In this document: positions 8,624-54,100 of the stretch, piece by piece | Layout of the letters: the number at the start of each line of letters is the position of its first letter | How positions within the stretch are numbered: position 1 is the stretch's first letter | Notes under the pieces: model-generated | Told to the model about the DNA's origin: nothing | Databases searched by the model: none | Seen by the model: only the letters and a program-made list of their open reading frames with translations | From: Candidatus Omnitrophota bacterium | GTDB lineage: Bacteria > Omnitrophota > Gorgyraeia > Gygaellales > Profunditerraquicolaceae | DNA: 64,000 bases | Assembly: GCA_022710715.1 (NCBI GenBank) | Contig: JAKLGJ010000003.1 | Location: 190,527 to 254,526 of the forward strand | Direction of reading: 5' to 3' | Translations under genes and position numbers: made by a program

Positions 8624-8637
8624 ATTACCCGCGAATG

Positions 8638-10933: not shown

Positions 10934-10939
10934 TATCAA

Positions 10940-14136: not shown

Positions 14137-14169
14137 AAATTGCCTTTCTGATCAAAATTAATTTATAGA

Positions 14170-17832: not shown

Positions 17833-17850
17833 TGATTATACCCTTATTCC

Positions 17851-18336
17851 TTACTTTATTTCCTCAAACAACTCCCCATTATCATACTCCGCCGGAAGCA
17901 CCAGATGCGCTGGCTTGCCGAACAGGCAGTCGCCTTCCTTATAAAACCCTTCGGCGATGAGCTCGGAGCAGACAAACCGCCGCTTGCTGCTGAAGAGCCG
18001 GTGCAGCCCCTCCCCTATGCGCGTAAACAATAGCGACAGCGGGAACCAGAAGAACTGCAAAGTATCGTAAGGCAGGTTGTTCATGGTCGCCCACCAGAGC
18101 GCGACTTTGTAGCGCTGGCGCTCGGACTGGCCGCGGCGGCGCAGGTGCTTGATCTGTATGCCCTTATCCAGGTAGGACTGCTTTAGATTGACCAGGCGGG
18201 AGCGCGGGATGCCGGCTTCGATGCAGGTATAACCGCCTAAACAGCCCAGCACGTGAGTCCATTTGCTGCTGTCGCCATAGCCGGCCTGAACCTGCGTTTT
18301 CTCGATAAGCTGATTGTGTCCGGCGACCAGGATCAC
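17851..18336 (-). CDS. YiiX / peptidase C92 family (permuted papain-fold) protein; N-terminus appears disrupted.
   Basis: GDVILVAGHN...SSKWTHVLG and FVCSELIAEGF match YiiX GDLVF...SPWSHVG and YCSEFV. Only a GTG lying inside the conserved GDV motif is available as start. GC higher than the neighbouring island. Confidence 0.4.
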   Translation of the reverse strand: MILVAGHNQLIEKTQVQAGYGDSSKWTHVLGCLGGYTCIEAGIPRSRLVNLKQSYLDKGIQIKHLRRRGQSERQRYKVALWWATMNNLPYDTLQFFWFPLSLLFTRIGEGLHRLFSSKRRFVCSELIAEGFYKEGDCLFGKPAHLVLPAEYDNGELFEEIK

Positions 18337-25584: not shown

Positions 25585-25968
25585 TCATTGTTTTTGGGAG
25601 AGCGTTTGGCTGATGCACTCAATGAGTTTCTGGGTGGTGACCGGCTTGGCCAGGAACGGACGGCCGCCGATGTTGCCTTTCTGGGCCTCTACCTCTTTGT
25701 CGCTGACGATCGCGGTGAGAAAAACGACCGGAATGCGGGAGAGTTCGGGATCGTTCTTGAGTTCGGCGAAGATGTCCACGCCGCTCAAATCCGGCATGAT
25801 AATGTCCAGAAAGATCATTTCCGGCTTGAATTCCTTGATCACCGGTATGGCCAGGAGCCCGCGGGATTCGGTACGCACTTCGAAATCGCCGGCCGCTTCA
25901 AGGTTCAATTTGACCATCCGGGCAAAAGATTCTTCGTCGTCTATGATGAGAATTTTACGCTTGGCCAT
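25585..25968 (-). CDS. Single-domain response regulator (REC only).
   Basis: ILIIDDE...D...K receiver motifs. Confidence 0.8.
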   Translation of the reverse strand: MAKRKILIIDDEESFARMVKLNLEAAGDFEVRTESRGLLAIPVIKEFKPEMIFLDIIMPDLSGVDIFAELKNDPELSRIPVVFLTAIVSDKEVEAQKGNIGGRPFLAKPVTTQKLIECISQTLSQKQ

Positions 25969-25979
25969 GGGCAGCCTCC

Positions 25980-27266: not shown

Positions 27267-27291
27267 AGTGGTTTAGATTGTACCACAAATT

Positions 27292-33216: not shown

Positions 33217-33579
33217 TCAGGCAACAGTCACTTTTTTCATTTTGGTGAAATAGATCCCCAGCCGGTGCGAATGATGATCCTCGTTGACCACATTGGAACG
33301 CACCTCGCCCAGAGCTTCCATCGGGCCGGAAAGCTTGACCACGTCATTATCCACTTTGAGCAGAGTGAAACGCATGGACAGGATAGTGGAAATAGGAATA
33401 TCTTTATCCGTCAATAAAGCCATCCCGGTCTGGCTGATATCGAGCATCTGGGCCTGGATATCCTGGCCGCCGAGCATGACTTTGGTGGTAGACGGTTCAT
33501 TGGTCCGGTAGACTACCGTGCAGTTCATGCGCATGCGTTTGCTGGTTCGACGGTCCGTGCCGGAAAAAATTCTGTTCAT
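33217..33579 (-). CDS. PilZ-domain (c-di-GMP-binding) protein.
   Basis: RRxxxR-like DRRTSKRMR and DxSxxG-like DISQTGMAL motifs. Start at MNRIFS with AAAGGAG RBS. Confidence 0.55.
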   Translation of the reverse strand: MNRIFSGTDRRTSKRMRMNCTVVYRTNEPSTTKVMLGGQDIQAQMLDISQTGMALLTDKDIPISTILSMRFTLLKVDNDVVKLSGPMEALGEVRSNVVNEDHHSHRLGIYFTKMKKVTVA

Positions 33580-33882
33580 AATAAGCGCTCCTTTCGCAGC
33601 GGGCGAAACTGTCGCCACGGGGCGTATGCCGGCGCAATGCACGTTAGCGCCGGGCACTATTTGCTGTAGAGACAATAGTCCTTACATTGAAAATAAGCAT
33701 TATCTATACCAAACTCGCGCCTGGCAGAAAATATAATCAGCAAGTATATGAATTATAAAGTGTTATATCAAAAAATCGGCGAGGCTAAATTAAAAGGATT
33801 TACGCGAAAAAGCCGGAAAAGTTGAATCCCGGCTACACCCTGTTGATTTATCCAAACAAGGGGACATTTAGGTGCGACACCG

Positions 33883-34116
33883 CTACATCTGGGTGATGGC
33901 TTCCTGGATCATGGGCATGATCCCTTCGATCTCTTCTTTAGTCAGCCTGCCGAGTTTGGCAAAACGGTAGTTGCCTTCCTGATCCTGATTTTCGCGCACG
34001 ATCTGAAGCTTCTTGGGGCCGTTATTATAGGAATACACGCTGACCACGATTTTCTGGTTCTCTTTGGTCCAGGCCTTGGAAAACAGTTGTTCGTCAAGAT
34101 TGCTATCGTAAGGCAT
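33883..34116 (-). CDS. Small PC4/YdbC-like ssDNA-binding protein.
   Basis: AWTKENQKIVVSVYSYNNGPKKLQIVRENQDQEGNYRFAKLGRLTKEEIEGI pattern resembles bacterial YdbC. Confidence 0.4.
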   Translation of the reverse strand: MPYDSNLDEQLFSKAWTKENQKIVVSVYSYNNGPKKLQIVRENQDQEGNYRFAKLGRLTKEEIEGIMPMIQEAITQM

Positions 34117-34147
34117 GCTCTCCTCCTCTTAGTAATACTTTGCTTGT

Positions 34148-34176
34148 ATTATACCTCTGCCGGCTGAAAAAAGCAA
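34148..34176 (-). promoter_or_regulatory. Sigma70-type promoter for the PC4-like gene: -35 TTGCTT, 17 bp spacer, -10 TATAAT, with RBS AGGAGGAG downstream.
   Basis: Read on the minus strand. Confidence 0.45.
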
Positions 34177-34201
34177 GAGGCTGGGCGTTTAACCCAGCCT
34201 C
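34177..34201. terminator. Bidirectional intrinsic terminator. 9-bp stem GAGGCTGGG / CCCAGCCTC, 7-nt loop, T-tracts on both strands (TTGCTTTTTT on minus, TTTTTC on plus).
   Basis: Perfect inverted repeat. Sits after cheW and REP copy H. Confidence 0.6.
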
Positions 34202-34205
34202 TTTT

Positions 34206-34286
34206 TCAAAAGGGGACACAGCAAATTTCAAAGGGGACACATCTGTCCGATTTTCTCGACGAGCCCCAAGGGGTGGACCTGTCCCC
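34206..34286 (-). repeat. REP-like element copy H, overlapping the cheW stop codon.
   Basis: Near-identical to copy G. Confidence 0.8.
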
Positions 34287-34780
34287 TATGCGAGGAGTTC
34301 GGCGGCGAGCGAGACGTCTTCGGTCAGGACTTTGTCGATGTCGAGCAGGATCTTGACCTTGTCGCCGATCTTACCCATGCCGGTGATAAAATCCGTGTGC
34401 ACTTTGTTGCCGAAACTCGGCGCCGGCTCGATATTGTCCTGGGATATATCCAGCACCTCGCACACCCGGTCGACGGCGATGCCCATAAGCGAATTGTTGA
34501 CGTTGAGCACGATGATGCAGGTCTCGTTGGTATAATCGTGCTTAGGCATCCCGAATTTCAAACGCAGGTCGATCACCGGGATCACTTTTCCGCGCAGGTT
34601 GATCACGCCTTTAACGTAATCCGGCACCTGGGGGACCGCAGTGATCTCCATCAGCCCGATGATCTCGCGCACTCCCAGGATCTCCAGGCCGTACTCTTCA
34701 TGTCCCAGGGCGAAGGTGAGGTATTTTCCTTCCTTAGCCAGGGCCTGAACCATAGTATTGGATTTCTCATTGCTTGGCAT
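34286..34780 (-). CDS. cheW: Chemotaxis coupling protein CheW.
   Basis: CheW-like domain LTFALGHEEYGLEILGVREII...VINLRGKVIPVIDLR. Confidence 0.85.
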   Translation of the reverse strand: MPSNEKSNTMVQALAKEGKYLTFALGHEEYGLEILGVREIIGLMEITAVPQVPDYVKGVINLRGKVIPVIDLRLKFGMPKHDYTNETCIIVLNVNNSLMGIAVDRVCEVLDISQDNIEPAPSFGNKVHTDFITGMGKIGDKVKILLDIDKVLTEDVSLAAELLA

Positions 34781-34797
34781 GTATTCCCTCCCCAGGA

Positions 34798-36450
34798 TTA
34801 GAAGCCTTTAAAGTTTTTGTCGTCGTCCAAAGGAATAACTTCTTCCGGCTTGAGCACCTTCGGCGATTGTTTGACATCGGCTGTCTTGGTAGTTACGCCT
34901 GCCGTCAAAGGTATATGCGCCTGTTTCTTGCCCGCGGCTGCCGCAAGCTTCTGCGGATGAGCGGCCGACAGTCTGCGCTCGACGGGATGCGCCGCCTGAT
35001 GAGTGGTTACCAGGGTGGCGTTGGCTCCGTCTACGACCTTACGCAGTTCCTGCACCATACCGCGCAGCGCGTCTGCTTGAGATGCAAGCTCTTCGGATGC
35101 GGATGCAGATTCTTCGGCCGCTGAAGCGTTCTGCTGGGTAACCTGATCCATCTGGGATACCGCGTTGGTAACCTGACCGATGCCCTCCGCCTGTTCTTTA
35201 CTGGCAGCGGCGATCTCGGAAACGATATCCGCGACTTTTTTGGAACTGTCGGTAATGCTCTTTAGGGAATCGCCGGCCTTCTTGACGATATCCGTTCCGG
35301 CCTTGACTTTGTTGATGCTGTCTTCGATCAAACTGGCGGTATCTTTGGCGGATTCCGCAGATCTGCGGGCCAGGTTACGCACTTCTTCGGCGACCACAGC
35401 GAACCCTTTGCCATGCTCCCCTGCGCGCGCCGCTTCCACTGCCGCATTCAACGCCAGAAGGTTGGTCTGGAAAGCGATCTCTTCTATGGTTTTGATAATC
35501 TTGGAAATCTTATCCGACGATTCGTTGATCTCGCCCATTGCCGACTGCATTTCCGACATGGCGGAATTACCCTGCTCCGCGGAAGATTTCGCTTCTGCGG
35601 CAAGCTGGTTGGCTTTGGAAGCGTTGTCCGCGTTCTGTTTGGTCATCGAGGACATTTCGTCCAGGGAACTGGACGTCTCTTCCAGCGAGGCCGCCTGTTC
35701 GGTAGCGCCCTGGGAAAGCTGTTGCGAAGCCGAAGACACCTGGTTGGCCGCCGAAGCGGTCTGCTCTGCGCCGTCGTTGAGGCTGTTGACGATGCGGTTG
35801 ATCGGACGGGTTATAGCCAGGGTCAGCGCCACGCCGATAAAAATAGCCAGCGCCAGGCCGATAATGATGAAGCTGATCATGAGCATCGAAGCTTTATTGC
35901 TCAAGGACGTATTGTCGTCCGACGTTTTCTGGCCGCTTGCGATCATCAGATCGATGAGTTTTTCCATTCTCTGCTGCTCGACTTCCGCGGTCGTTTTCGC
36001 GTCGCCTACCAGAAGGACATTGAACTCGTCCTCTTTTCCCGCGCGCTTGAGGCTGACCAGCTTATCCAGGTTGGCGCGATAGGCTTTGCGGGAATCCACA
36101 AAATCCTGATTGGCTTTTTTGAGCTCTTCCGTATTGATGGATTGCTCGAGCCGCTCGACGCTTTTGCTGATGACGGCGGAAAAGCCTTTGATCTGCGTGT
36201 CGAATTTGACGATTTCTTCATCGGTTTTAGCTTTGGCCATGTCCCGGATGGCAATGCGCACATTCAAAAAAGCGGACGAGATTTTCTGTAATTCGGCGAT
36301 GGGGATAGTGATATCTTTATAGAGAAGCGCACCGGCTTTGTCTATTTTCTTGATGTTTACCACGCCGACCATACCTATCGCCAACGCGACCAGCGCCACT
36401 ATTAGGAAGCCACCCAGCAATTTCACACCGAGTTTCATGTTCTTAAGCAT
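34798..36450 (-). CDS. Methyl-accepting chemotaxis protein (4HB sensor, TM, HAMP, MA domain).
   Basis: Highly conserved signalling hairpin ...[35 protein letters not shown]. Start set to ATG 36450 with AGGAGG. Confidence 0.85.
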
Positions 36451-36606
36451 GCCGTTCCTCCTTAGACGTTGAATAAACAGAGGCATTTTTCCTCAATACC
36501 TCCGATATACATTGTACTTATCGGTTAGCGAAGGCAATACTTTAGAGTAATTTTAAAATAAATCATGGCGAGCATTGCAGCAAAGCAGGCGGGGTCAAAC
36601 GGCGGA

Positions 36607-37138: not shown

Positions 37139-37951
37139 TTATTCCGGCTGCGTAGCCGTTACGCCGGGCTGGGGAGCGACGCGCAGATTGGGGTAGAGCA
37201 CGACGATACTGATGCGGCGGTTACGGGGATCTTCGGGATCGGCTTTGATCACCGGGCGGGTCGCGGCAAAACCCGCGACCATGCTGATGCGCCGGATGTC
37301 CAGACCGGATTTCTCCAGCTCCAGCCTGGCCGACGAAGCGCGGGCGGTGGAAAGCTCCCAGTTAGTGTACACGCTGGAAGGGAATTCCAGCGCGTCGGTA
37401 TGGCCTTCGATCACGAGTTTGTTATCCGTTTCGTTGAGATTCTCGCTCAAGGCCTTGAGGATCACTTTGCTGTTGGGGTTGAGTTCCGAGCTGCCCAGCT
37501 GGAACAGGGGTTTTCCCTGATTGTCCATGATATCGATGCGCACCCCCTCTTCGGTCAGGGTCACCTGCACCTGTTCTTTAAGATCGCCCAGTTTATGTTC
37601 GATGGTTTTTCTCAACTTGTCGCGCAGATCCGAGGCGCTGACCACAAAAGTCAGCCTGGTCTGCGTCGAGGAATGGAATAATCCCGGCTGCTTGCGGTTG
37701 CCCCGCAGATTGCCCTTCTCGTCGAAAATAGTCTGCCCCAGTTTCTGGAATATCGCGCGGTACTTGAAGTACCCGGCGATCTCGGAACGCTTCTCGCCGG
37801 TAAGCATCGTGGTGACCAGCCACATCACCAGAAAAAACGCCATCATCGCGGTCATGAGATCGGCATACGCGACTTTCCAGGCTCCGCCGTGATGGCCGCC
37901 GACCACTTTTTTCACCCGTTTGACGATAATCGGCGCTTTCTGATCGCTCAC
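37139..37951 (-). CDS. motB: Flagellar stator protein MotB (OmpA-like C-terminus).
   Basis: AWKVAYADLMTAMMAFFLVMWLV plug/TM; peptidoglycan-binding domain. Confidence 0.85.
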   Translation of the reverse strand: MSDQKAPIIVKRVKKVVGGHHGGAWKVAYADLMTAMMAFFLVMWLVTTMLTGEKRSEIAGYFKYRAIFQKLGQTIFDEKGNLRGNRKQPGLFHSSTQTRLTFVVSASDLRDKLRKTIEHKLGDLKEQVQVTLTEEGVRIDIMDNQGKPLFQLGSSELNPNSKVILKALSENLNETDNKLVIEGHTDALEFPSSVYTNWELSTARASSARLELEKSGLDIRRISMVAGFAATRPVIKADPEDPRNRRISIVVLYPNLRVAPQPGVTATQPE

Positions 37952-38800
37952 TTATTTACCCTGGCCTTTGACCGCGGTTTCCATTTCGCTGAACGACGGC
38001 TTGACCTCGCCCGGTATGGCCCGTCTGCCGAATTCCACCGCCATCAGCGGAGCTACGCCCCGGGCAAAGGCGATCAGCGCGGCTTTGATGATCTGCAGAT
38101 ACACCCCTTCCTCGCGAGCCTTATGCTCGAGATTGGTGGACATGGGGCTGAAAATACAATACGACCCGAAGATCCCGAAGAACGTCCCCAGCAGCGCTAC
38201 GGCGATATGATGGCCGATGACCAGGGGCGGCTGGTCGATCTTGCCCATGGTCAGAACAACGCCGATAACCGCGGCGACGATGCCCAGACCGGGCAACCCG
38301 TCGGCGATCCGGTTGACCGCGTGCGACGGCTCCAGGGCATGCTCGTGATGCGTGTCTATCTCCAGGTCGATCAGGCTCTCCAGTTCGAACGGGGGGATAT
38401 TCGCGCTGACGACCATGCGCACGTTGTCGCAGATGAACTGCACCAGCTCGTGGTTTATCTTATATTTTTTGAACAACTCGCTCTGTTTGGGATTCTCGAT
38501 ATCGCCTTCCACGGAGAGCGGCCCATCCTTGCGGATCTTGGAGAATAAACCGTACAATAAAGAAAGATAGTTCAGATAGGATTTCTTATTCGGCGGGACG
38601 GCTGTGAACATGGCCGGAAGATTCTTGAGTACAGCAGCGACCACTCCCGGGGGATTAGCGATAAGAAAAGCGCCTATGGCTGCGCCGAAAATGATCATCG
38701 CTTCCACCGGCTGGAATAGAATCGCCACGTTCCCCTTTTCCAGTATGTATCCGCCGACAACCGAAAACATGACCACAACGATCCCGATAATCACGAGCAT
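37952..38800 (-). CDS. motA: Flagellar stator protein MotA.
   Basis: Collinear with E. coli MotA motifs (YLQ...LER.DIENP...LP.FGIVAAV.GVV...EFGR). Confidence 0.85.
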   Translation of the reverse strand: MLVIIGIVVVMFSVVGGYILEKGNVAILFQPVEAMIIFGAAIGAFLIANPPGVVAAVLKNLPAMFTAVPPNKKSYLNYLSLLYGLFSKIRKDGPLSVEGDIENPKQSELFKKYKINHELVQFICDNVRMVVSANIPPFELESLIDLEIDTHHEHALEPSHAVNRIADGLPGLGIVAAVIGVVLTMGKIDQPPLVIGHHIAVALLGTFFGIFGSYCIFSPMSTNLEHKAREEGVYLQIIKAALIAFARGVAPLMAVEFGRRAIPGEVKPSFSEMETAVKGQGK

Positions 38801-38803
38801 AGT

Positions 38804-41399
<2,596 letters not shown>

Positions 41400-41403
41400 G
41401 TGC

Positions 41404-43462
<2,059 letters not shown>

Positions 43463-43475
43463 TCTCCATGCACGT

Positions 43476-43964
43476 TCAGGTTACCTTCTGCAGTTCCTTG
43501 AGCGTTTCCTGGAACAGCCGTTCCTTGACTTCCGAGGTTATGGACTGGCTGACCAGCCGCTGCGCCAGTTCCAGGGAAATCTCGGAAATTTCGTTATACG
43601 CCTCCAGCAGGAGACGGTTGTTATCCTCCTGCACCGCGTTGTGCGCTTTCTGGCGGATCTGATCGGCTTCCTCATGCGCCTTACGCAGGATTTCATCCCG
43701 CAGCTTGCCGGCTTCCAGTTTCGCCCCGGCCAAAACTTCATCCGCCTGCTGCTGTATGCCGACGAGCTTACGCGAGTACTCCGCTTCCTGCTTTTTGACC
43801 GCTTGCTTGGTCTCTTCGATCAGCTCCAGGTCTTTCCGGATCGTCTCTTTGCGCTGCGCCAGCAGCGCGCAGATGGGTTTCCAGGATATTTTCCACAGGA
43901 TGCCCACGGCCAGCAGAAAAGTGATGATCTGGGCAACCAGAATCCCCGCATTGATCTCAAGCAT
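43476..43964 (-). CDS. atpF: Fo ATP synthase b subunit.
   Basis: Single N-terminal TM plus a long charged helix. Confidence 0.8.
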   Translation of the reverse strand: MLEINAGILVAQIITFLLAVGILWKISWKPICALLAQRKETIRKDLELIEETKQAVKKQEAEYSRKLVGIQQQADEVLAGAKLEAGKLRDEILRKAHEEADQIRQKAHNAVQEDNNRLLLEAYNEISEISLELAQRLVSQSITSEVKERLFQETLKELQKVT

Positions 43965-43979
43965 GGTTTTCCTCGCTGT

Positions 43980-44345
43980 TTAATGCACCAGCAGCTTGGT
44001 GAACGGGTTGACGAATAAAATGATGATACCGATGAAAAGCGTATACAATACCAGCGATTCGATGAACGCCAGACCGATCATCAGCACCATCTGGATCTTC
44101 GGCGTCGCTTCCGGCTGACGGGCGATGCCGTCCAGAGCGCTGGTAATGGCCTTGCCTTGCGCGATACCGCAGAGAGCCGCGACGACGGCCAGCGCGAATC
44201 CGGCCACGATGATGGAAACGCTGAAATAATTGACGTACGCCGGCTGCGCCAACTGTTGCGCCGCCCCGGCGCCGCCTTCAGCCGCCCAGGCAACCGCGCC
44301 CTGCGTCAACAACGCCATACAACAACCCGCGAGTTTCTTGACCAT
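43980..44345 (-). CDS. atpE: Fo ATP synthase c subunit with an about 40-aa N-terminal extension.
   Basis: Hairpin with conserved Glu (AFIESLVLY); the extra N-terminal segment is hydrophobic. Confidence 0.8.
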   Translation of the reverse strand: MVKKLAGCCMALLTQGAVAWAAEGGAGAAQQLAQPAYVNYFSVSIIVAGFALAVVAALCGIAQGKAITSALDGIARQPEATPKIQMVLMIGLAFIESLVLYTLFIGIIILFVNPFTKLLVH

Positions 44346-44360
44346 GTGTCCTCCCTTTGT

Positions 44361-45095
44361 TTAGTGTTCCTCGAGTTTGACTGCGCTCGCAACGTACGAG
44401 ACAGACAGAACCATGAAAATAAGCGCCTGGATGAACCCGACCATCAAACCCAGCAGCAGGATGAACGGCCGCAAGAACAACGGCCCCAGGCTCAATCCTT
44501 TGACGATGAGTTCCTTGCCGAAAAAGAATTCCAGCATCAGGAAAGCCAGTATGCCCAGCAGGATCTCCTTGGCGAAGATATTGCAGAACAAACGCAAAGC
44601 CAGCGAGAACGGCCGGGCGAAATTACCGATCATCTCGATGATGAACATCAATCCGCGGATAGGAAACATATACCAGGGAAGCGACGGCCCGAAGAAATGC
44701 TTCAGGTATCCCAGCCCCTGCCGGCGAAACCCCATGAAGTTATAGTACACGAATACCACCAGCGACAGGCCCACGGTAACATTCAGGTCCGAAGTCGGGG
44801 AGATCAGGCCGGGGAACAAGCCGATAAGGTTGCCGACAAAGATGTACAGGAAGATCCCGATAAACAAAGGATAATACCGGACCGCGTCATGGCCGATGGC
44901 GTCGTCGATCATGCCGGTAATACTCTCGAAACACATTTCAAAGACCGATTGCAGCGCGTGCGGTACCCGCCGGGCGGTTTTGAGCACCGCCAGCGACGCG
45001 ACCCCGATAGCCAGCCATACCAGCCAGGTCATCAGCAGGCTGGTGGGAATGTTCGCGATATGGTATTCGATGCTTTCCGGAACAACCGAGCTCAT
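44361..45095 (-). CDS. atpB: Fo ATP synthase a subunit.
   Basis: Conserved Arg helix ...LALRLFCNIFAKE. Start trimmed to MSSVVPESIEY; the upstream 117 aa of the track ORF is a Gly/Arg-rich read-through. Confidence 0.85.
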   Translation of the reverse strand: MSSVVPESIEYHIANIPTSLLMTWLVWLAIGVASLAVLKTARRVPHALQSVFEMCFESITGMIDDAIGHDAVRYYPLFIGIFLYIFVGNLIGLFPGLISPTSDLNVTVGLSLVVFVYYNFMGFRRQGLGYLKHFFGPSLPWYMFPIRGLMFIIEMIGNFARPFSLALRLFCNIFAKEILLGILAFLMLEFFFGKELIVKGLSLGPLFLRPFILLLGLMVGFIQALIFMVLSVSYVASAVKLEEH

Positions 45096-45478
45096 ACACT
45101 GCGCCTTTCTCTCGTCTTCTGCGACTGAACGGCCCTGCCGATCAACCAGACCGATACCGCCAGTCCCGCGACCAGCCCGCACACGATACCCCAGACGTTC
45201 ACCGCAGCCGGTCCTACCAGCAGCCAGAAGGCTATGCCCATCGCGGCAAACCGCAGGAAAGGGTTTTTGAACAGGTAACTCGTCCAGTGCCGGCGATAAA
45301 CGGATATCGCCGCTTTCAGACCGATGATCAATAAAAACAGGTCTGCCAGACTCACCAGAACGCCCGCGATCACGCCGGTAAACAGGTGGGCCCTGCCCAG
45401 AACCATACCGCTGGCTATCAGCAACACTGCCAGGCACGCCGCACACCGGGCAGCCCGCAGCTGGATATTATGTATCAT
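45092..45478 (-). CDS. atpI: ATP synthase protein I (AtpI-like small membrane protein).
   Basis: 4 TM helices; located upstream of atpB. Confidence 0.55.
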   Translation of the reverse strand: MIHNIQLRAARCAACLAVLLIASGMVLGRAHLFTGVIAGVLVSLADLFLLIIGLKAAISVYRRHWTSYLFKNPFLRFAAMGIAFWLLVGPAAVNVWGIVCGLVAGLAVSVWLIGRAVQSQKTRERRSV

Positions 45479-45680
45479 CGGAAAGCTTCTTGATCTCTTT
45501 AATCACCTGCCAGAAACCGGCAGCGATACCCAGGATGAGAAATACTAACGTAAAAAGCGGCGAACTGCCGAACCGCTTATCGATCGCCAGCCCTATGCCC
45601 AGCCCCAGCGCCGTGGCGACGATCATGGTAATGCCCAGCGACGAAAGCGACCAGAGCTGCCAGGAAGCGTTTTTGCTCAT
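45468..45680 (-). CDS. AtpZ / ATPase_gene1-family small membrane protein.
   Basis: Two-TM 70-aa protein at the head of the atp operon. Confidence 0.5.
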   Translation of the reverse strand: MSKNASWQLWSLSSLGITMIVATALGLGIGLAIDKRFGSSPLFTLVFLILGIAAGFWQVIKEIKKLSDDT

Positions 45681-46090
45681 CGCGCCACAGCGCCGCAGTT
45701 CACATCGCCGCAGCGCATGGTATTATCGATGCAGGAGATGAGCTTGTGGGCTTCCACCGGCTTGGCGATGAAATTCCTGCCGCCGATCTCGCGCATCAAT
45801 CTGGATCCGATCTCCTCTTCCGTGACCAGCGCGGTCAAAAACAGAATGGGCACGCTTTTGAGCAATTCGTTGCGCAGCAGCGCGTCGGCGACGTCCGGAC
45901 CGGACATGTTCGGCATCATCACGTCCAGGATGATCAGATCCGGCTTATTCTGCTGCGCCAGGGTAAGACCGGTTTCTCCGGTATGCGCGATGCTGACCTG
46001 GAACCGGCCGCTGCGTTCCAGGATCTGCTTCACAAAAAAACAAAAGTCTTTTTCGTCGTCGATCAAAAGGATTTTCTTTACTTCTGCCAT
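45677..46090 (-). CDS. Single-domain response regulator (REC only).
   Basis: [11 protein letters not shown]...DVMMP...K. Start ATG 46090 with AGGAGGAAGC RBS; the track ORF over-extends. Confidence 0.75.
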   Translation of the reverse strand: MAEVKKILLIDDEKDFCFFVKQILERSGRFQVSIAHTGETGLTLAQQNKPDLIILDVMMPNMSGPDVADALLRNELLKSVPILFLTALVTEEEIGSRLMREIGGRNFIAKPVEAHKLISCIDNTMRCGDVNCGAVAR

Positions 46091-47769
46091 GCTTCCTCCT
46101 GCTGCGCGGGTTGGCCCGCATAGACTGGTAGTTTGATCAAAAAGGCGGTGCCTGTGCCCACCTGACTCTTCACTTCGATCGAACCGCGATGGCGCTCGAG
46201 GATCATGTGAGAGATACTCAATCCCAGCCCCGTGCCCTTTCCCGGTTCTTTGGTCGTAAAGAACGGGTCGAAAATGCGATCGAGATTCTCCGGCGCGATA
46301 CCGGTACCGGTATCGCTGACGTTCACCCCTGCCCAGGACGCGCCGTCCGACTGTTCCTGCGTGACGCATACGGACAGCCTGCCGCCTTTGGGCATGGCGT
46401 CGATACCGTTCAGGAAGAGGTTGAAGAAAACCTGGCGCAGCATGGTCACGTCCGCCTCGATGAGAACGGGCAGCGGCGGGAACTGCCGCTGGATCTCCAC
46501 CGCGTTCAACGACGCCTGATGTTCGAGCAACCCCGCGGCTTCGGCGATCAAAGCGCACAGGTCCACCGCTTTGAGCTCGAGTTTCGAGGCGCGGGAGAAC
46601 TTAAGCAGCTCGATGATGATATTGTTGGCGCGCAGGATCGAATTTTTCATCTTCTCGATCGACTCGCCGGTCATCGGATCGTCGTTTTTCATCGTGCCCT
46701 TGAGGAATTCCAGCCCGCTCATGATGATGCCCAGCGGATTGCGGATCTCGTGCGCGATGCCCGACGCCAGCTGCCCGACGGAAGCGAGCTTCTCGGTCTG
46801 GATAAGCTGGTCCTGGGTGGCGTGCAGCTTCTTGATCGTCTCTTCGAGCATCTCTATTTTCGCCTGCAGATCGTTGTAGAGCTTGAAATTCTCGATGGCG
46901 ACCCCGCCCTGGCCCGCGAGCACGGCCAGCAGGGTATATTCGCGTTCCGTAAACCCCTCTTCGCTTTCTTTCTCGCAGATGTTCATCACGCCGAAAGTCG
47001 TGCGCTGGGAACGCAGCGGCAAGCTGGCCAGCGGCGGCGTATACAAAGACGCCGGAGCCATGTCCGGATGGCTCTGCATCAATTCGTCGAACGACTCCCG
47101 GCTGTTGATCACGATCGGCTTGCCTTCCCTGATCACTCTGCCGGGAATGGTGTTCTCCACCTCGAGCTGCGCGGGCGCCGATGCGGCGCCGTCGCCGTTG
47201 CCGCGCACCGCTTTGACCGTCAGTTGCCGGCTGTGGTCATCGAGCATCAACAGCGAACCTTTTTTCGCCCGGGTAATGGATAAGGCCGAATCGAGTATCC
47301 TGCCTAAATAAGCGTCGAGGTTCGATTCGCTGGTCACCGAGCGGTTGATTTCGAACAACGTGCGCAATTCGGTGGCTTTGACGTAATCGATCGCGTACGC
47401 CTGCTTGCGCAGGCAACGCTCGACGGTCGAGACCAGTTCATTGATGTCGAACGGCTTGCAGATGAAATCGAACGCGCCGATCTTGAGCGCTTCCACGGCG
47501 GCTTCGATGGTCGGATAGCCGGTGACCAGGATCACCTCGATGTACGGATTGGTGATCTTGATCTGCTTGAGCACGTCCGTGCCGGTAAGGCCGGGCATCT
47601 TGAGATCGGTCACCAGGAGGTTGAAGGCATTGGTCTTGAGTTTTTCCACCGCGACGGAACCGTTCTCCGCCGTTTCCACCTCATACCCTTTGTCGGTGAG
47701 AACTCGTTTGATAAGCTGGATGATGATGTCTTCGTCATCCGCGATCAGTATCCGGGGTTTTATCATCAT
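46078..47769 (-). CDS. Hybrid sensor kinase: REC, GAF, HisKA, HATPase_c.
   Basis: ILIADDE...D; H-box [11 protein letters not shown]; N, G1, G2 boxes. Confidence 0.85.
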
Positions 47770-47963
47770 GCTCCTTCAAAACCGCTGGAGTTGCGTACCC
47801 ATTCCTTGAGCTGCTCGCGCTCGAATCTCCATTTATGCATCACTTTTTTTGCGGGCAGACTGCCGTCTTTGAGAAGCCGGTATACCGAACGCTTGCTCAA
47901 CCGCAGAAACGTTGCCGCTTCGTCAAGAGTCAGAATTTCGACGTCCTTATCAAGAACAAACAT
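47766..47963 (-). CDS. Stand-alone excisionase/MerR-type helix-turn-helix DNA-binding protein (65 aa).
   Basis: LTLDEAATFLRLSKRSVYRLLKDGSLPAKKV. 4-nt overlap with the GAF kinase start. Confidence 0.55.
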   Translation of the reverse strand: MFVLDKDVEILTLDEAATFLRLSKRSVYRLLKDGSLPAKKVMHKWRFEREQLKEWVRNSSGFEGA

Positions 47964-48142
47964 CCCATCCTTTCTGTAAAGCCCCCCCGGCTTTACTTCC
48001 GGCCGTTGATACTGCCGGACAGACGATATCCTTCCTGCGCAGCGCGCCAGGCGAATAGCAGTTAAACTGCCAGTAATATCACTGTGTTACCGTTATTATC
48101 GGCCTGGCCTTGAAAAACTTTAATGCGTGAAAAAAAAGGGAT

Positions 48143-49642
48143 TTACGGGGAAACCGGCAGGAGGATGGTGAAGGTAGTCCCTTTTCCGACGACGCTCTCA
48201 ACGGAAATGGAACCTTTGTGATTCTCGATAATGCGATAGACGATGGACAGCCCCAGACCGAGACCTCCGCTGGGGGATTTGGTGGTAAAGAAAGGGTTGA
48301 AGATGCTTTCCATCTGTTCCTGCGGGATACCGCAGCCGTTATCCGCGACCTGCAGCTGCGCCGCATGCGCCTGCTGCAGCCCGACGGTCCTGACCAGGAT
48401 CTCGCCCGGCTCCGGCCGTTTGACCGACTCGATGGCGTCGCGCGCGTTGGTAATAAGATTGATCAATACCTGCTGCAGCTGGTTGAGGTCGCCGAGCACG
48501 TGCGGCAGATCCGGCTGCAGCTCGACGCGCATCCTGATATTGTGCACTTTCAACTGCGCCTTCAATAAGGAAAGCGAATCTTCCACCGCCCGGTTAAGGT
48601 CGCAGGCCTGGACTTTAAAATCGGTCTTGCGGGCGAAGGAACGCACGTTCTGGATGATCTTCTCCATGCGTTCGGTCTGATCCACGATCTTCTGCAGATC
48701 CGCGCGGACTTTATGCTGCGGCTCGATATCCAGCAGCGCGACCTGGGCGAAACCGCGTATGCCGGTCAGCGGCTGGTTGAGCTCGTGGGAGATCCCGGCG
48801 GCCAGCTGTCCCATGGCCGTCATCTTGCTGGAATGGATCAGCTGCTGCTGGGTGTCCTGAAGCTTCTTGTACGCTTCCTGCAGCGCCTGCTCGGCCTGCT
48901 TGCGCTCGGAGATGTCGTTGGCCACCACCAGGGCCACGGTGATCATCCCGCTGTGATGCTTGAGGGGCTGAATGCTGGTCTGGTACCAGCGTTTCCGTCC
49001 CCCGACGATTGTTTCGCTCTCGCCCGTCATCCCCTGATCGGAATCGATCACCTGCTGCACCCATTTAAGCTGATTATCCGCGTATTCCTGCGGAAAAATT
49101 TCGTGCATGGTCTTACCGATGTAATCGGCCGGCTTGCCCCCCAGTTCTTTCGCGCCTTCGTTATTAAGGAAAAGCACCACTCCGTTACGGTCGACGGTTA
49201 CGATAGCCTGCTGCAACGACTCCACCAGAGTGCGGTATTTCTCCTCGCTCTCCCTGATGCGGTTCTCCATTTTGTGCTTGTACAGAGCGGTCTCGATGCC
49301 GCTGACGATCTCCCGCTCTTCGAAAGGCTTGAGTATGTATCCGTAGGGGCCGGTAAGTTTCGCCCGCTGCAGGGTCTCGGCATCGGCATAAGCGGTCAGG
49401 TACATCACCGGGATATTGAACCGGCCGAAGATCTGCTCCGCGGCGTCGATACCGTCCATCGCCCCGTCGAGCATGATATCCATGAGCACCAGGTCGGGTT
49501 TAAGCGCTTCGGCTTTGGCCAGGGATTCTGCCGCCGTGGCCACCGCGGCGACCACGTCGTAACCGATGCCGCGCAAACGCTCGGCAAGATCCTTGCGCAC
49601 GATCCCCTCATCCTCGACTATCATCAAACGTGTCCCGGCCAT
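48143..49642 (-). CDS. Hybrid sensor kinase: REC, PAS, HisKA, HATPase_c.
   Basis: LMIVEDE...D; H-box AGISHELNQPL; G boxes. Confidence 0.85.
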   Translation of the reverse strand: MAGTRLMIVEDEGIVRKDLAERLRGIGYDVVAAVATAAESLAKAEALKPDLVLMDIMLDGAMDGIDAAEQIFGRFNIPVMYLTAYADAETLQRAKLTGPYGYILKPFEEREIVSGIETALYKHKMENRIRESEEKYRTLVESLQQAIVTVDRNGVVLFLNNEGAKELGGKPADYIGKTMHEIFPQEYADNQLKWVQQVIDSDQGMTGESETIVGGRKRWYQTSIQPLKHHSGMITVALVVANDISERKQAEQALQEAYKKLQDTQQQLIHSSKMTAMGQLAAGISHELNQPLTGIRGFAQVALLDIEPQHKVRADLQKIVDQTERMEKIIQNVRSFARKTDFKVQACDLNRAVEDSLSLLKAQLKVHNIRMRVELQPDLPHVLGDLNQLQQVLINLITNARDAIESVKRPEPGEILVRTVGLQQAHAAQLQVADNGCGIPQEQMESIFNPFFTTKSPSGGLGLGLSIVYRIIENHKGSISVESVVGKGTTFTILLPVSP

Positions 49643-49675
49643 GGTCCTCTATCCTCGCGCGCCCGGCGCGCTTGG

Positions 49676-52600
49676 TTATTTGAAGCGTATCTTGAACAGC
49701 GTCCCTTTGTTGCGCAGCACTTCGAACGTGCCGTTGAGCTGCTCCACCAGGGTAAGCACGATCTGCAGCCCCAGGCTCGGCGTTCTGTACACATCCATCC
49801 CGGCAGGCAAACCTTTGCCGTTGTCTTCGATGGACAAAGTATATGTTGTATCAGGTTCCTGCCTGAAGTCAATACAAATTTCCCCCTGCCGGGAATCGCT
49901 GAAAGCGTGCTTGAGCGCGTTGGACACCAGCTCATTCACGATCAACCCGCAGGGAATGGCGTGATTCACCGTCAATGTTATATTATCGACCACATTGATC
50001 CTGAACTTGATTTTTTTCGTGTCCACCACATAGGACGCGAACAACCCCGCGGCCAGGTCATGGATATACTTGGTAAAATCGATCTTGGTCAGGCTTTTGA
50101 GATAATATAATCTCTCGTGGATCAATACCATGGATTTGATCCGGCTCTGGCAGTCTTTGAACATCACCCGGTCATCGGGGTCCTTGAGGGATTTGGACTG
50201 CAGATTGATCAGGCTGGAAACCACCTGAAGGTTATTCTTGACCCGGTGATTGATCTCCTTAAGCAAAATCTCCTTTTCTTTCAGCGCGGCGGTCATGCTC
50301 TCCTGAATCCTGACCCGCTCGCTGATGTCCAGCGCGGTGAAAATCATCCCTTTGCTCCAGTCCGACTGATCCAGCGGCACGGAACTCAAGAGCACGTTGA
50401 TTACGACGCCGTCTTTGCGCAGCCAGCGGGTTTCTACCGTGCCCATCCCGGTCTTTCTGATCTGATCGTACTTGACCCTACCCACGAATTCGTAATCTTC
50501 CTGCGCGGGATACAGCATCCGCGCTTCGCGACCGGTCAGCTCTCCGGCTGCATACCCGGTCATCTTGCAGAAACAGTCGTTGACCTGCTGAATCACCCGG
50601 TTCACCACCAGGCCGATACCGATGGGCGCGGCGCGGAATATGCTGTTGAGTTTGTTTTCACGCTCGCGCAATGCCTGCTGCGCCAGTTCCATTTCGGTGA
50701 CGTCCCTGACTGTGGCCAGCAGACAGGCCTCTCCGTCGATCACGATGCGTTCGGCGGAGACCGAAGCCACGAACGATTCCCCGGATTTGCGCCGCTGTAA
50801 AATGCGCATATGGGCGGCGGCGCTGTCTAAAGCCTGCAGCAGACGCTTGCGATCCTGATCGTCTACCCAGATGCCCAGTTCCACCGACGTTTTGCCGATC
50901 GCCTCGCTGCGCGAATAACCGAAGATCTTCTCCGTCGCTTCGTTGGTTTCGATGATGCGGCCCGTTTCCAGAGAGCTGATGGTCATCCCGTCCGCGCTGG
51001 AGTGGAAAGCCTTGGAAAACTTTTCTTCGGACAACCGCAGCGCCGCTTCAGCGCGCTTGCGCTCGGTTATATCGATATTGGTCCCGATATACCCTTTGAC
51101 GCTGCCGTCGGGATCGCGCCATGATACCGCGTATCCCAGGACGAAAGTGACCTTGCCTTCCGGGCTGCAGAACCGGCATTCCAGCCCCCATTTCCCTTCG
51201 GAAGCGACCAGCCGCGGCCACTCCTTATCGATCAGGGCGCGGTCATCCGGATGCACCCCCTCGAGCCATCCTTTGCCCAGGGATTGCTCAAAGGTCAATC
51301 CGGACATCTCGCTCCAGCAGCGGTTGACATAGAGGCAATCGCCGTTCTGGTCGGTCAGATAGATCGCGATCGGCGATTCCTCGGCCAGGGCGCGGAAGCG
51401 TTCCTCGCTCTCCCGCAGAGCCTCCTCCGCGATCTTCAAGGCGGTGATATCCTCGCAATACACCAGCCACCCGCCGTCTTCAAGCGCTACGGTGTGAAAA
51501 GAAACGATTTTCTGGCTGCCCTCCCTGCAGACGATAGGAAAAACGCGGACATGTTTCATCCCCGGACGCATTGTCCGGGTATCGCTGATCCATTCAGCAA
51601 CGACCTGCTTCCGGGCCGGCTCATCCGGGAAAGCCCGCTTGAACCAGGTTGCGCCGTCCGGGAGATCCTCCAGCGAATAACCGGTGATCTCGGTAAAACG
51701 GTTATTGACATACGACAGCTTGCCCGCCAGGGTGAGCATCATGATGCCCAGCGGCGATTGCTCGGAAAGCATCTCGAATTTCCGGTGCTGCGCCTGGACC
51801 AACTCTTCCATGCGTTTACGCCCGGTAATATCGGTGAACATGGCGAATGCCCCGCCGAACCCCCCGGCTGCGTTGCGCAGCGGAGTGGCGGAAACCAGCA
51901 TCCAGCGCACCGAACCGTCTTTGTGCCGGAACCGGCGCTCGAACCGCGCGTCTTCTCCCTGCACGCTTAAAGCTATTTTCTCCCGGTGATCATCCAGATC
52001 CTCCGGAGCCACAAAATCGGCAAATGGCTTGCCCACCATTTCCTCGGGAACAAGCCCGAGCATATCCGCCATTTTCTGATTAACAAAGGTAGTAATATAC
52101 TCTTCGTTCATACCCCAGATGCCTTCGTTGGCGGTCTCGACAATGCGCCGGTAGCGTTCTTCGCTTTCGCGCAACGCCGTTTCGATGTTTTTACGCTCGG
52201 TGATATCGCGGCTGATCCCCTGTAAGGCTACCATCCGGCCCCGGGGATCGCTCAACAGGCAGAACCGGGCTTCCAACCAGCGCAGCGAACCGTTCTTGTG
52301 CCGGACCTGGAGCTCCTCGGTATAATACTGCGATGCTTTGCCCCGCTGCCGGGAATGCTGCTCCCTGATCTCCTTGAGCCGCTTGCGCAAATAGGCGTAC
52401 GTCGCCGGGGTGATCACATCCTTGAAATCGGTATTCATCGCTTCTTCGACACTGTACCCCAGCAGCGTTGTTACCGCCGGGCTGACGAACGTATGGCGCA
52501 AACGCGTATCCATCACCCAGACGATATCCCGGATATTCTCGGCCAGGAACCGGTATTTCCGCTCGCTCTCTTCAAGAATGCGGTGTTCGGTTTTGCTTTC

Positions 52601-53518
52601 GGTGATATCCCGGATGGATTCGATCGCGCCGATCTTATTGCCTTTGGCGTCATAGAGAATCGCGGCTTTTGCCCAGAGGATCCTCTTCCTTCCCTGCGGC
52701 CGGGAAAATTCGGTTTCGGCGATAAGCGTGCCGTTCTCCCGGCGCAGCATGGTATAGAATTTCTGCTCGATCATTTTGTGCTGGCGTAAAACCAGATCGA
52801 TCAGGATCGGCCGGCGCTGACCGTAGAAAAACAGGGCGTATTCGAAATTTCCTTTTCCCAGGATATCCTGGGCTTTGACGCCGGTCAACTCTTCGATAGC
52901 GTGATTCCAGGCGATCACCGTTCCTTTTCTATCTATGGCAAAGGTTGCGTCCGGCAGGAAATTGATGATGTCCAGCAGGCGTTGCTGGGAAGACCTTACC
53001 GCCGACGCGGCTTTGCGGTGCGCGGAAACATCGGTGCCCACCCCGAAAAAATAATCAAATTCGCCGTCAGCGCGGAATACCGGGCTGAACTGCCATTCCA
53101 CGTCTATCAGTGCGCCTTTTCGGGGTTGAAGGCTGCAGGCGAGTTGATACGGACGCCGGGAACGCAGCGACTCTTTGAAGTTTCGCAGGAAATCCGGGCG
53201 TTTTTCAGCGGGAACAAATGTGTCGACGAAAGGTTTGCCCAGGGCCTGCTTGCGGCTGCAGCCCAGCGCTTTCAGCAGCATATCGTTCATCATCGCCACC
53301 GCGCCGGCGTGGTCGAGCACGAAAAAGAGAACCGGGAAAGCCCGGACCAGGCTGCGGGAAAAGTCGCGTTCCTTGATCAGCTGTGTTATAGCAAGTTTAT
53401 GGTCGGCTTCGAGCTTCTCCAGCTCAAAGAGACGGCGATGCAGCAGTTTTAATTCGCGGATAAGCGTCCTGTCTGAAGGCGGTGAGGATGGATTGGCTGG
53501 GGGGATATGTTCGGGCAT
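49676..53518 (-). CDS. 1280-aa cytoplasmic multi-PAS (>=7 PAS/PAC) sensor histidine kinase of the HisKA_2/HWE type.
   Basis: Repeated PAS cores (SE.RYR...E..DI.W); HisKA_2 H-box EINHRVKNNLQVVSSLINLQ; HATPase_c_2. Confidence 0.85.
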   Translation of the reverse strand: MPEHIPPANPSSPPSDRTLIRELKLLHRRLFELEKLEADHKLAITQLIKERDFSRSLVRAFPVLFFVLDHAGAVAMMNDMLLKALGCSRKQALGKPFVDTFVPAEKRPDFLRNFKESLRSRRPYQLACSLQPRKGALIDVEWQFSPVFRADGEFDYFFGVGTDVSAHRKAASAVRSSQQRLLDIINFLPDATFAIDRKGTVIAWNHAIEELTGVKAQDILGKGNFEYALFFYGQRRPILIDLVLRQHKMIEQKFYTMLRRENGTLIAETEFSRPQGRKRILWAKAAILYDAKGNKIGAIESIRDITESKTEHRILEESERKYRFLAENIRDIVWVMDTRLRHTFVSPAVTTLLGYSVEEAMNTDFKDVITPATYAYLRKRLKEIREQHSRQRGKASQYYTEELQVRHKNGSLRWLEARFCLLSDPRGRMVALQGISRDITERKNIETALRESEERYRRIVETANEGIWGMNEEYITTFVNQKMADMLGLVPEEMVGKPFADFVAPEDLDDHREKIALSVQGEDARFERRFRHKDGSVRWMLVSATPLRNAAGGFGGAFAMFTDITGRKRMEELVQAQHRKFEMLSEQSPLGIMMLTLAGKLSYVNNRFTEITGYSLEDLPDGATWFKRAFPDEPARKQVVAEWISDTRTMRPGMKHVRVFPIVCREGSQKIVSFHTVALEDGGWLVYCEDITALKIAEEALRESEERFRALAEESPIAIYLTDQNGDCLYVNRCWSEMSGLTFEQSLGKGWLEGVHPDDRALIDKEWPRLVASEGKWGLECRFCSPEGKVTFVLGYAVSWRDPDGSVKGYIGTNIDITERKRAEAALRLSEEKFSKAFHSSADGMTISSLETGRIIETNEATEKIFGYSRSEAIGKTSVELGIWVDDQDRKRLLQALDSAAAHMRILQRRKSGESFVASVSAERIVIDGEACLLATVRDVTEMELAQQALRERENKLNSIFRAAPIGIGLVVNRVIQQVNDCFCKMTGYAAGELTGREARMLYPAQEDYEFVGRVKYDQIRKTGMGTVETRWLRKDGVVINVLLSSVPLDQSDWSKGMIFTALDISERVRIQESMTAALKEKEILLKEINHRVKNNLQVVSSLINLQSKSLKDPDDRVMFKDCQSRIKSMVLIHERLYYLKSLTKIDFTKYIHDLAAGLFASYVVDTKKIKFRINVVDNITLTVNHAIPCGLIVNELVSNALKHAFSDSRQGEICIDFRQEPDTTYTLSIEDNGKGLPAGMDVYRTPSLGLQIVLTLVEQLNGTFEVLRNKGTLFKIRFK

Positions 53519-53730: not shown

Positions 53731-54054
53731 CTACGGCTCTCCCAGTTCTTCCAACAGCTTTTCTGCAGTCCTGTCCGCGACTTCCGGATTGAGATACTCT
53801 CCCTGATCGATCTTCGCCCGGGCTTCTTCGACTTTCTTGAGATCGACATCAGGCATGTTCTTGACTATGTGCGTATAGCGTGCGACTTCTGCCGCGGATA
53901 AGCCTTCTTTGGAAAGCATGAGTTTGTCCTTAGCTGGCGTTTCTTTTTTTTGGGCTGCCTCAATGCTGTTCTTTGCAGAATCTATAGATGCATGCGCTCC
54001 TGGTTTGACCCGGCGCGACTGGTCTATTCCCTGCGGATTTATCTTGTGTATCAT
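53731..54054 (-). CDS. flgM: Anti-sigma-28 factor FlgM.
   Basis: C-terminal DLKKVEEARAKIDQGEYLNPEVADRTAEKLL FlgM signature; RBS GGAGGA. Confidence 0.75.
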   Translation of the reverse strand: MIHKINPQGIDQSRRVKPGAHASIDSAKNSIEAAQKKETPAKDKLMLSKEGLSAAEVARYTHIVKNMPDVDLKKVEEARAKIDQGEYLNPEVADRTAEKLLEELGEP

Positions 54055-54073: not shown

Positions 54074-54100
54074 GTTACGGCACATTTCGCTGAAACTTTA
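54074..54100 (-). promoter_or_regulatory. Sigma28 (FliA) promoter: TAAAGTTT, 11-nt spacer, GCCGTAAC (consensus TAAAGTTT-N11-GCCGATAA).
   Basis: Read on the minus strand 20 nt upstream of the flgM ATG. Confidence 0.7.

Follow-up and report, generated by a model that had tools for sequence, protein, structure and literature searches.

A putative late-flagellar module of cytoplasmic sensor kinases and receivers, with a small excisionase-type helix-turn-helix protein, in an Omnitrophota bacterium

In enteric bacteria and Bacillus, the class III flagellar operons, which carry che, mot, and methyl-accepting chemotaxis protein (MCP) genes, are driven by sigma-28 (FliA) and held in check by FlgM. Pathways composed of an HWE/HisKA_2 kinase and a single-domain receiver are exemplified by LovK-LovR and PhyK-PhyR. 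TorI is a prophage-encoded inhibitor that has the excisionase fold and binds the response regulator TorR, and Rv2175c is a small winged helix-turn-helix (HTH) protein that is encoded beside the kinase PknL, is controlled by it, and is phosphorylated on threonine by a Ser/Thr kinase. In Streptomyces, BldC is a DNA-binding regulator of the MerR-like type that stands alone and has 68 residues (PMC5859096). Here, we compare these systems with a gene cluster in a 64,000-nucleotide stretch of DNA (hereafter, the window; GenBank assembly GCA_022710715.1, contig JAKLGJ010000003.1, forward-strand positions 190,527 to 254,526) from a Candidatus Omnitrophota bacterium. The cluster encodes three histidine kinases, a stand-alone receiver (REC) protein, and a 65-residue protein of the HTH_17 family.

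We consider it slightly better than an even chance that this cluster is a cytoplasmic multi-kinase/receiver module in the late flagellar (sigma-28/FliA) regulon of the bacterium, and motility is probably steered via small receiver proteins rather than by a classical DNA-binding regulator. The link to late flagellar genes is suggested because a sigma-28 promoter lies before the HTH gene, flgM lies upstream, and motAB and an MCP-cheW pair lie downstream. The whole cluster, from flgM to the REC-only gene, is on the minus strand, and its features are as follows, domain calls being Pfam profile scores set against curated cut-offs.

54074-54100, minus strand: sigma-28-like promoter before flgM, TAAAGTTT-N11-GCCGTAAC, 3 mismatches
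53731-54054, minus strand: flgM, anti-sigma-28 factor, 107 residues (Pfam FlgM 28.8 bits, cut-off 25; TIGR03824 33.8 bits, below its cut-off)
49676-53518, minus strand: soluble sensor kinase, 1280 residues, with a PAS array, HisKA_2, and HATPase_c (Pfam)
48143-49642, minus strand: REC-PAS-HisKA-HATPase kinase, 499 residues (Pfam)
48096-48122, minus strand: exact sigma-28 (FliA) consensus, TAAAGTTT-N11-GCCGATAA, 0 mismatches (16/16), 133 nucleotides (nt) 5' of the HTH start codon
48068-48080, minus strand: leader element GATATTACTGGCA, 15 nt past the -10 box, candidate operator
47766-47963, minus strand: stand-alone HTH_17 protein, 65 residues, first gene past the sigma-28 promoter (Pfam)
46078-47769, minus strand: REC-GAF-HisKA-HATPase kinase, 563 residues (Pfam)
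45677-46090, minus strand: REC-only response regulator, 137 residues, 'IDDEKDFCFF' family (Pfam)

The promoter before the HTH gene, which matches the pattern TAAA-N15-GCCGATAA at 48096-48122, lies in a 179-nt intergenic gap between the REC-PAS kinase gene and the HTH gene. An exact match to the sigma-28 consensus is expected, by calculation, about 3e-5 times in the 128 kb of both strands of the window, and sites with at most three mismatches number four where 0.53 is expected; the other intergenic ones stand directly upstream of flgM and of the MCP-cheW pair. In L006, the orthologous locus of a related genome, flgM likewise has TAAAGTTA-N11-GCCGTTAA immediately 5' of the gene, and the HTH promoter is the best-conserved block of an intergenic region that has otherwise diverged between this locus and the window. 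A sigma-28-like site that agrees at 13 to 16 of 16 positions precedes the HTH gene in all nine distinct members of its clade (9/9), against 11 of 1500 random 260-nt windows that score 13 or more. At HTH loci outside the clade, the sigma-28 score is at background. We therefore do not regard the promoter as a trait of the wider HTH_17 family, in which only L030 was positive and L037 marginal outside the clade.

In all, 98 loci were fetched for comparison. The clade has about nine distinct members, which fall into three architectures. Architecture A (the window, L006, and L098) runs flgM, PAS-HisKA_2 kinase, REC-PAS kinase, HTH, REC-GAF kinase, REC, and the atp operon. Architecture B (L008, L010, and L011) runs Hpt, REC-kinases, a 183-residue REC protein, HTH, REC, REC-PAS kinase, three REC proteins, and a kinase that resembles CheA but lacks the CheW domain. 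Architecture C (L012, L013, and L097) runs FliM, HTH, FliY, CheY, CheX, MCP, CheW, REC, CheA, and further che genes, the HTH gene lying between fliM and fliY and overlapping the latter by 8 nt. The REC-PAS kinase is common to architectures A and B, with REC domains that are 54-62% identical, and Hpt proteins are confined to the architecture B loci. Overall, the operons headed by the HTH cassette encode either REC and kinase genes or FliY-CheY-CheX-MCP-CheA genes, and the HTH gene is translationally coupled to whichever gene comes next, be it that for FliY or, at distant loci, a defense gene. Across these loci, the HTH gene, the sigma-28 promoter, and the leader element travel together as a unit that is placed in operons of three different architectures. 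The original prediction, a reading of the window from its letters and open reading frames, had tied the HTH protein to the signaling genes, and a genomic tie to receiver and kinase genes recurs in all three architectures. Its suggestion of an output in motility or exopolysaccharide is much strengthened in its first half by the exact sigma-28 promoter, the nine of nine clade sites, the fliM/fliY-cheY context of the homologs, motAB, and MCP-cheW; the exopolysaccharide half is unsupported.

Between the window and L006, identity is 83% for AtpA, 77% for the HTH protein, 64% for the REC protein, and 54-59% for the kinases, with the GAF-kinase ortholog at 54%. L006 also encodes a FliA/WhiG sigma factor five genes upstream of flgM (269 bits; cut-off 189.6). 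In that locus (L006 616-4506), fliA is followed by small open reading frames, including one for a DUF6115 protein, and then by flgM, and this arrangement resembles the sigma-28/FlgV/'TM+HTH' sub-module described elsewhere (PMC11607428). In place of this block, the genome of the window has a 216-residue membrane protein, a 64-residue open reading frame, and an HTH_3-cupin regulator.

The leader element follows the consensus (T)ATTaCTGkCA, 15-16 nt after the -10 box, in 8 of the 9 clade promoters. In an alignment of all nine anchored at the -10 box, it stands out as a further peak of information, the first two being the -35 and -10 boxes themselves, whereas the sigma-28 promoters of flgM and the MCP gene are not followed by it. 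In sequence, the element repeats the -10 region imperfectly and in inverted orientation, with 13 nt between the two, and the inverted-repeat match amounts to 8/12 positions in the window and 8-10/12 in architecture B, the null probability of 8 or more being 0.0045. From this arrangement, the element may be regarded as a candidate operator, with the HTH protein as its candidate ligand. Several other interpretations of the region were set aside. A sigma-54 promoter (TGGCAG-N5-CTGCT, about 48051-48066) seemed plausible from the window but was rejected because L006, L012, L097, and L008 do not keep its -12 GC. A known RNA element is likewise disfavored: no Rfam match was found in 47700-48300, the 5' untranslated region folds just moderately better than shuffled sequences (z = -2.4), and about 50 nt of it are absent from L006. 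Nor does the motif appear to mark a wider regulon, as no enrichment was found: a degenerate 10-mer matched twice in the 64 kb, where about 0.7 matches would be expected from a calculation, and the second match, at 55679, is probably due to chance.

The HTH protein itself belongs to the HTH_17/excisionase family, scoring 55.6 bits against PF12728 (cut-off 27) and 47.8 bits against TIGR01764 (cut-off 28.8), with a weak score of 26.7 bits against the Rv2175c_wHTH profile of Pfam (cut-off 27.1). Across 13 relatives of 61-81% identity, 31 residues are invariant, and the recognition helix and wing (LSKRSVYRLLK and KWRFER) are the best-conserved parts. A scan of 1.84 billion representative proteins gave 4869 HTH_17-type matches, among them only one representative of the HTH clade, and a scan of a genome collection gave only five loci, because the clade is small. 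The AlphaFold (AF2) model has three helices and a wing, that is, a winged helix (pLDDT 67), and its best PDB fold matches by Foldseek are BldC bound to DNA, followed by RacA, RdfS, and Xis, with TorI (1z4h) lower; the match to BldC has a TM score of 0.64-0.74 at 23-30% identity. A sequence and profile search of the PDB with the HTH protein found no significant match, BldC included. BldC-like stand-alone MerR-type regulators have about 60-70 residues, a winged helix only, and neither a coiled coil nor an effector domain; the 65-residue protein has these features in this model of moderate confidence, and it is probably a BldC-like stand-alone DNA binder.

The original prediction had named a prophage remnant as the finding that would dissociate the HTH protein from signaling, and the locus does not look like one: synteny is conserved, integrase is absent nearby, and the HTH protein retains 77% identity where AtpA retains 83%. 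A prophage or excisionase origin was rejected because the PHROG matches are at the domain level only and no integrase or phage gene was found among the annotated genes of the window, and a true recombination directionality factor was rejected because the neighbors are flgM, kinases, and the atp operon, in an order that is kept at that level of AtpA identity. A role in anti-phage defense was also rejected (MAD1 52 bits, cut-off 80; PADLOC 29 bits; non-defense context), and distant relatives of the HTH protein do occur in defense loci. A literature search on HTH_17 with response regulators, excisionase with FliA, and Omnitrophota flagella returned nothing on the HTH gene.

More distant HTH_17 relatives (40-65% identity) occur in mixed contexts, for example before NtrC-type regulators and hybrid kinases, beside a DinG-like helicase, and in defense-like loci. 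Those at 55-65% identity repeatedly precede signaling genes and often diverge from a DinG-like helicase gene and a NUDIX gene. In L040 and L046, the relative is followed by a Ser/Thr kinase-HDOD (Pkinase-HDOD) protein, and in L022, L028, L047, and L055 by AAA_22 and HD_5 genes. These contexts hint that this branch of HTH_17 may be a general companion of signaling genes. The top-scoring representatives for the HTH query (P0134-P0138 and others) are proteins of 165-560 residues with 3-6 tandem HTH_17 domains.

With regard to the kinases and receivers, the kinase-dense composition that had been predicted (a REC-only, a REC-GAF, a REC-PAS, and a seven-PAS HisKA_2 protein) was confirmed by the Pfam domain search, which placed these domains where they had been proposed; HisKA or HisKA_2, HATPase_c, and Response_reg all exceed their cut-offs, and the receiver alignment has the acidic pocket and the T and K positions. 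The predicted lack of a protein that joins REC to a DNA-binding domain also holds, as a six-frame REC profile scan of the 64-kb window returned only five REC-containing open reading frames, none of which (0/5) has a DNA-binding domain. Some details require correction. The ATG of the REC-only gene lies at 46090 rather than 46084; flgM, which had been placed downstream of the cluster, is upstream in the direction of transcription; and the HTH gene does overlap the GAF-kinase gene, as had been said, at its stop codon rather than its start, the two sharing ATGA at 47766-47769. A strict His-Asp-His-Asp phosphorelay is not what is found, because the five cluster proteins have no Hpt domain by Pfam and consist instead of kinases with N-terminal receivers and a stand-alone receiver, and the suggestion of partner switching is unsupported, STAS, PhyR-like, and NepR-like proteins being absent among the genes from 33 to 56 kb.

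No transmembrane segment was found in any of the three cluster kinases. The PAS array of the 1280-residue kinase consists of seven stretches by Pfam and eight by TIGR00229, and the best named match of its core is NCBIfam PhyK at 131 bits, which is far under the cut-off. Its positional counterpart in L006 (L006 4698-6239) has only 513 residues and 28% identity; the sensor array of the HisKA_2 kinase is changing fast while the remainder of the cluster is stable. A sigma-70-like promoter is present at 53628-53600, in the gap between flgM and the gene for this kinase. The REC-only gene overlaps the end of the GAF-kinase gene by 13 nt and the start of atpZ by 4 nt.

The best matches of the 137-residue REC protein form a lineage-specific REC-only family ('IDDEKDFCFF', hereafter 'FCFF'). 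To this family also belong the proteins of architecture B that consist of REC alone and the second such protein of the window, and among the 98 loci fetched it is restricted to HTH-clade loci. In architecture C, the 'FCFF' gene lies between cheW and cheA. The protein was considered as a CheY ortholog and rejected, because pairwise comparison argues against it and architecture C has distinct, true CheY orthologs, which share 46-49% identity with the CheY of E. coli; for this comparison, the CheY sequences of E. coli and Thermotoga were entered by hand. The second REC-only protein (133 residues) is encoded together with a 430-residue REC-HisKA-HATPase kinase at 25588-27272 on the minus strand, and neither an HTH gene nor a sigma-28 site was found beside this pair.

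Together, these features allow a mechanism to be proposed. Once the hook-basal body is complete and FlgM has been exported, sigma-28 would turn the operon on; the PAS and GAF kinases would sense signals within the cytoplasm and hand phosphate on to receivers; and single-domain receivers, acting on motility by protein-protein contact, would serve as the outputs. Single-domain receivers as outputs would explain the absence of a regulator with REC and DNA-binding domains, and this is most simply how the missing classical regulator may be understood. Such an output would suit the 137-residue REC protein because its relatives sit between cheW and cheA. The HTH protein would most probably bind a dyad, with the -10 box as one arm and the inverted copy in the leader as the other, giving feedback on its own sigma-28-driven operon. 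It is probably a promoter-proximal autoregulator that gates the downstream genes, since the promoter, the leader element, and the HTH gene move as a cassette before different signaling operons.

The operon that would be so controlled may extend well beyond the cluster, into the following features.

38804-45680, minus strand: F-type ATP synthase operon, atpZ-I-B-E-F-H-A-G-D-C, with a short atpC (Pfam)
37139-38800, minus strand: motA-motB stator genes (MotA by PDB structures, E = 4e-19; MotB by MotB_plug and OmpA)
37138-37122, minus strand: terminator-like hairpin directly after motB (terminator scan)
34286-36544, minus strand: MCP and cheW, including the sigma-28-like promoter (profile matches)
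36518-36544, minus strand: sigma-28-like promoter before MCP-cheW, 2 mismatches

From 37139 to 47963 on the minus strand, 15 genes follow one another head to tail; no junction exceeds 15 nt, and many of the genes overlap by 4 nt. They come in the order HTH, REC-GAF kinase, REC, atpZ-I-B-E-F-H-A-G-D-C, motA, and motB. The atpZ start overlaps the REC stop (ATGA), 3 nt separate the end of atpC from motA, and a simple scan found no sigma-70-like promoter on the strand of this array. An ATP synthase operon flanked by flagellar-regulon genes is unusual. Beyond the array, the region at 33217-36544 on the minus strand comprises the sigma-28-like promoter, the MCP, which has a 4HB sensor, cheW, a 77-residue open reading frame, and a PilZ-domain protein. 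Elsewhere in the window, a low-GC island at about 8000-18000 (35-40% against about 57%) encodes a family 2 glycosyltransferase, a Wzy-type polymerase/ligase, a polysaccharide pyruvyl transferase, and a flippase, and is probably a horizontally acquired surface-polysaccharide locus; a sugar transferase is encoded at 22775-24193.

A number of points weigh against assigning the cluster to the late flagellar regulon as described. The promoter, the operator, and the extent of the operon are sequence predictions, and fliA of the source genome lies outside the window, FliA being seen only in the orthologous locus L006. L013 lacks the leader element, and in L006, L098, and L097 the inverted repeat matches weakly (5-6/12); binding of the HTH protein to the element is read solely from their co-occurrence, and the element could alternatively act in the RNA as a leader signal or be bound by some other factor. 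The HTH model is of only moderate confidence, and its fold matches are weak (E about 3e-3). The 137-residue REC protein is not a CheY ortholog, and its contact with the motor stands as a proposal. A housekeeping atp operon under sigma-28 would be odd, and internal promoters that escape a simple scan are likely. Finally, about nine distinct clade members in three architectures amount to few independent observations.

Other explanations of the same genes must also be weighed. A possible, if doubtful, one is a split response regulator, in which the 65-residue HTH protein is the output and a separate receiver, either the REC domain of the GAF kinase or the 137-residue REC protein, binds it under the control of phosphorylation; with the same reserve, the pair may be viewed as the two-polypeptide equivalent of fused HTH_17-REC response regulators. 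A large family of such fusions does exist (761 clusters at E <= 1e-10; the top 120 are all PF12728+PF00072, and some are named 'response regulator' by NCBI), the order of an HTH gene followed by a gene that starts with REC recurs in the window, L008-type loci, L033, and L034, and the ATGA overlap with the REC-GAF kinase gene suggests coupled synthesis. Moreover, the HTH protein and the 'FCFF' REC-only protein co-occur in 8/9 distinct clade loci and in all three architectures, and the REC domain of the fused proteins best matches that of the GAF kinase among the REC domains compared (38%, 78 bits). However, the GAF-kinase REC domain is the most generic of the set, and an unrelated REC-HD protein also matches it best, so that a specific relationship was rejected as an unspecific signal. 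In the HTH, identity to the fused family is only about 40%, and that family occupies a different branch of the tree. The constant companions of the HTH gene are the promoter and leader element, not one kinase; the gene is coupled translationally to any that follows; and in architecture C it stands ahead of fliY and a chemotaxis operon of the ordinary kind, a setting in which no transcriptional output would be expected. The fused proteins, of which there are at least 761 clusters, are mostly from Methylomirabilota/Rokubacteria and appear uncharacterized; natural fusions of 183-186 residues, each followed by a REC-HD_5 protein, are found at L084 7965-8525 and in L083, L085, L087, and L089.

It is very unlikely, in our judgment, that the HTH protein is instead an adaptor that works away from DNA, contacting a receiver or a flagellar switch protein much as TorI contacts TorR. 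TorI is indeed among its fold matches, and in architecture C its gene is wedged between fliM and fliY with the 8-nt overlap noted above, but the recognition helix and wing are its most conserved parts and have the basic residues typical of DNA-binding HTH_17 proteins, its best structural matches are the DNA-bound regulators BldC, RacA, and RdfS, and a conserved DNA element accompanies its gene. We would be equally surprised if the genes proved to be mere neighbors, that is, independent two-component genes whose true DNA-binding partner is a conventional response regulator elsewhere on the 1.62-Mb contig, with an HTH protein that has nothing to do with them, being either a local regulator or a mobile-element relic. 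It is common for kinases and regulators to be orphans, our view is limited to 64 kb of the genome, the HTH protein has domain-level matches to PHROGs excisionases and a defense HTH (MAD1), and its distant relatives occur in unrelated contexts (DinG helicase, defense genes, Ser/Thr kinase). Yet the order and content of the cluster are shared with L006 at 54-64% protein identity, parts of it are common to architectures B and C, its genes overlap, no integrase or phage gene occurs in the 64 kb around the HTH gene, and the promoter and leader element are specific to the clade.

We thus return to the late-flagellar module as the preferred reading. Omnitrophota are uncultivated, and to our knowledge their regulation is essentially unstudied by experiment; if the reading is correct, the locus offers a testable piece of their flagellar hierarchy, in the form of a sigma-28 promoter together with a candidate operator and regulator. 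It would also be a clear case in which an excisionase-type HTH has been domesticated as a chromosomal regulator and is carried in a cassette that includes a promoter and an operator of its own, and it would imply that kinase clusters without an output regulator may belong to the motility program and act through single-domain receivers. A bolder extension, which we regard as improbable, is that this HTH_17 clade is an unrecognized, dedicated late-flagellar regulator of Omnitrophota that is produced from a sigma-28 promoter, binds the dyad with the -10 box of that promoter, and is set by a phosphorylated 'FCFF' receiver, as a two-polypeptide HTH_17-REC; PAS and GAF sensing would then tune the signaling-ATP synthase-MotAB transcript and couple energy supply to motor output.

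The cluster combines known kinds of parts, namely a putative late operon of the sigma-28 type, two-component proteins, and a small HTH protein like BldC, and most notable are the conserved cassette of promoter, candidate operator, and HTH gene and the unusual gap-free array of signaling, ATP synthase, and stator genes. Like LovK-LovR and PhyK-PhyR, the locus has a gene for a soluble multi-PAS HisKA_2 kinase near single-domain receivers, but PhyR, NepR, and an extracytoplasmic function (ECF) sigma factor are absent and the context is flagellar. TorI-TorR and Rv2175c-PknL share with it a small excisionase-type or winged HTH protein tied to a signaling protein, and neither is known to be linked to flagellar genes. 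The fused HTH_17-REC regulators have the same domain order, HTH then REC, with a linker that resembles the junction of the two window genes; they differ in that two polypeptides are made here, the HTH is of another branch at about 40% identity, and the fusions lack an upstream sigma-28 promoter. BldC (PDB 6ama and 6amk) is similar in size to the HTH protein, is likewise a single winged helix without a dimerization or effector domain, and is a chromosomal regulator rather than a recombination factor, but it is not known to be linked to sigma-28 or two-component genes. It binds cooperatively to direct repeats in a head-to-tail fashion; the candidate site in the window is instead an imperfect dyad of which the -10 box forms part. 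With the class III flagellar operons, the locus shares the exact TAAAGTTT-N11-GCCGATAA promoter and the nearby flgM, motAB, MCP, and cheW genes, and in related genomes the HTH gene heads a fliY-cheY-cheA operon; unlike them, it has GAF and PAS kinases with N-terminal receivers and a DNA-binding protein in place of the classical che genes, and it runs without a gap into an ATP synthase operon.

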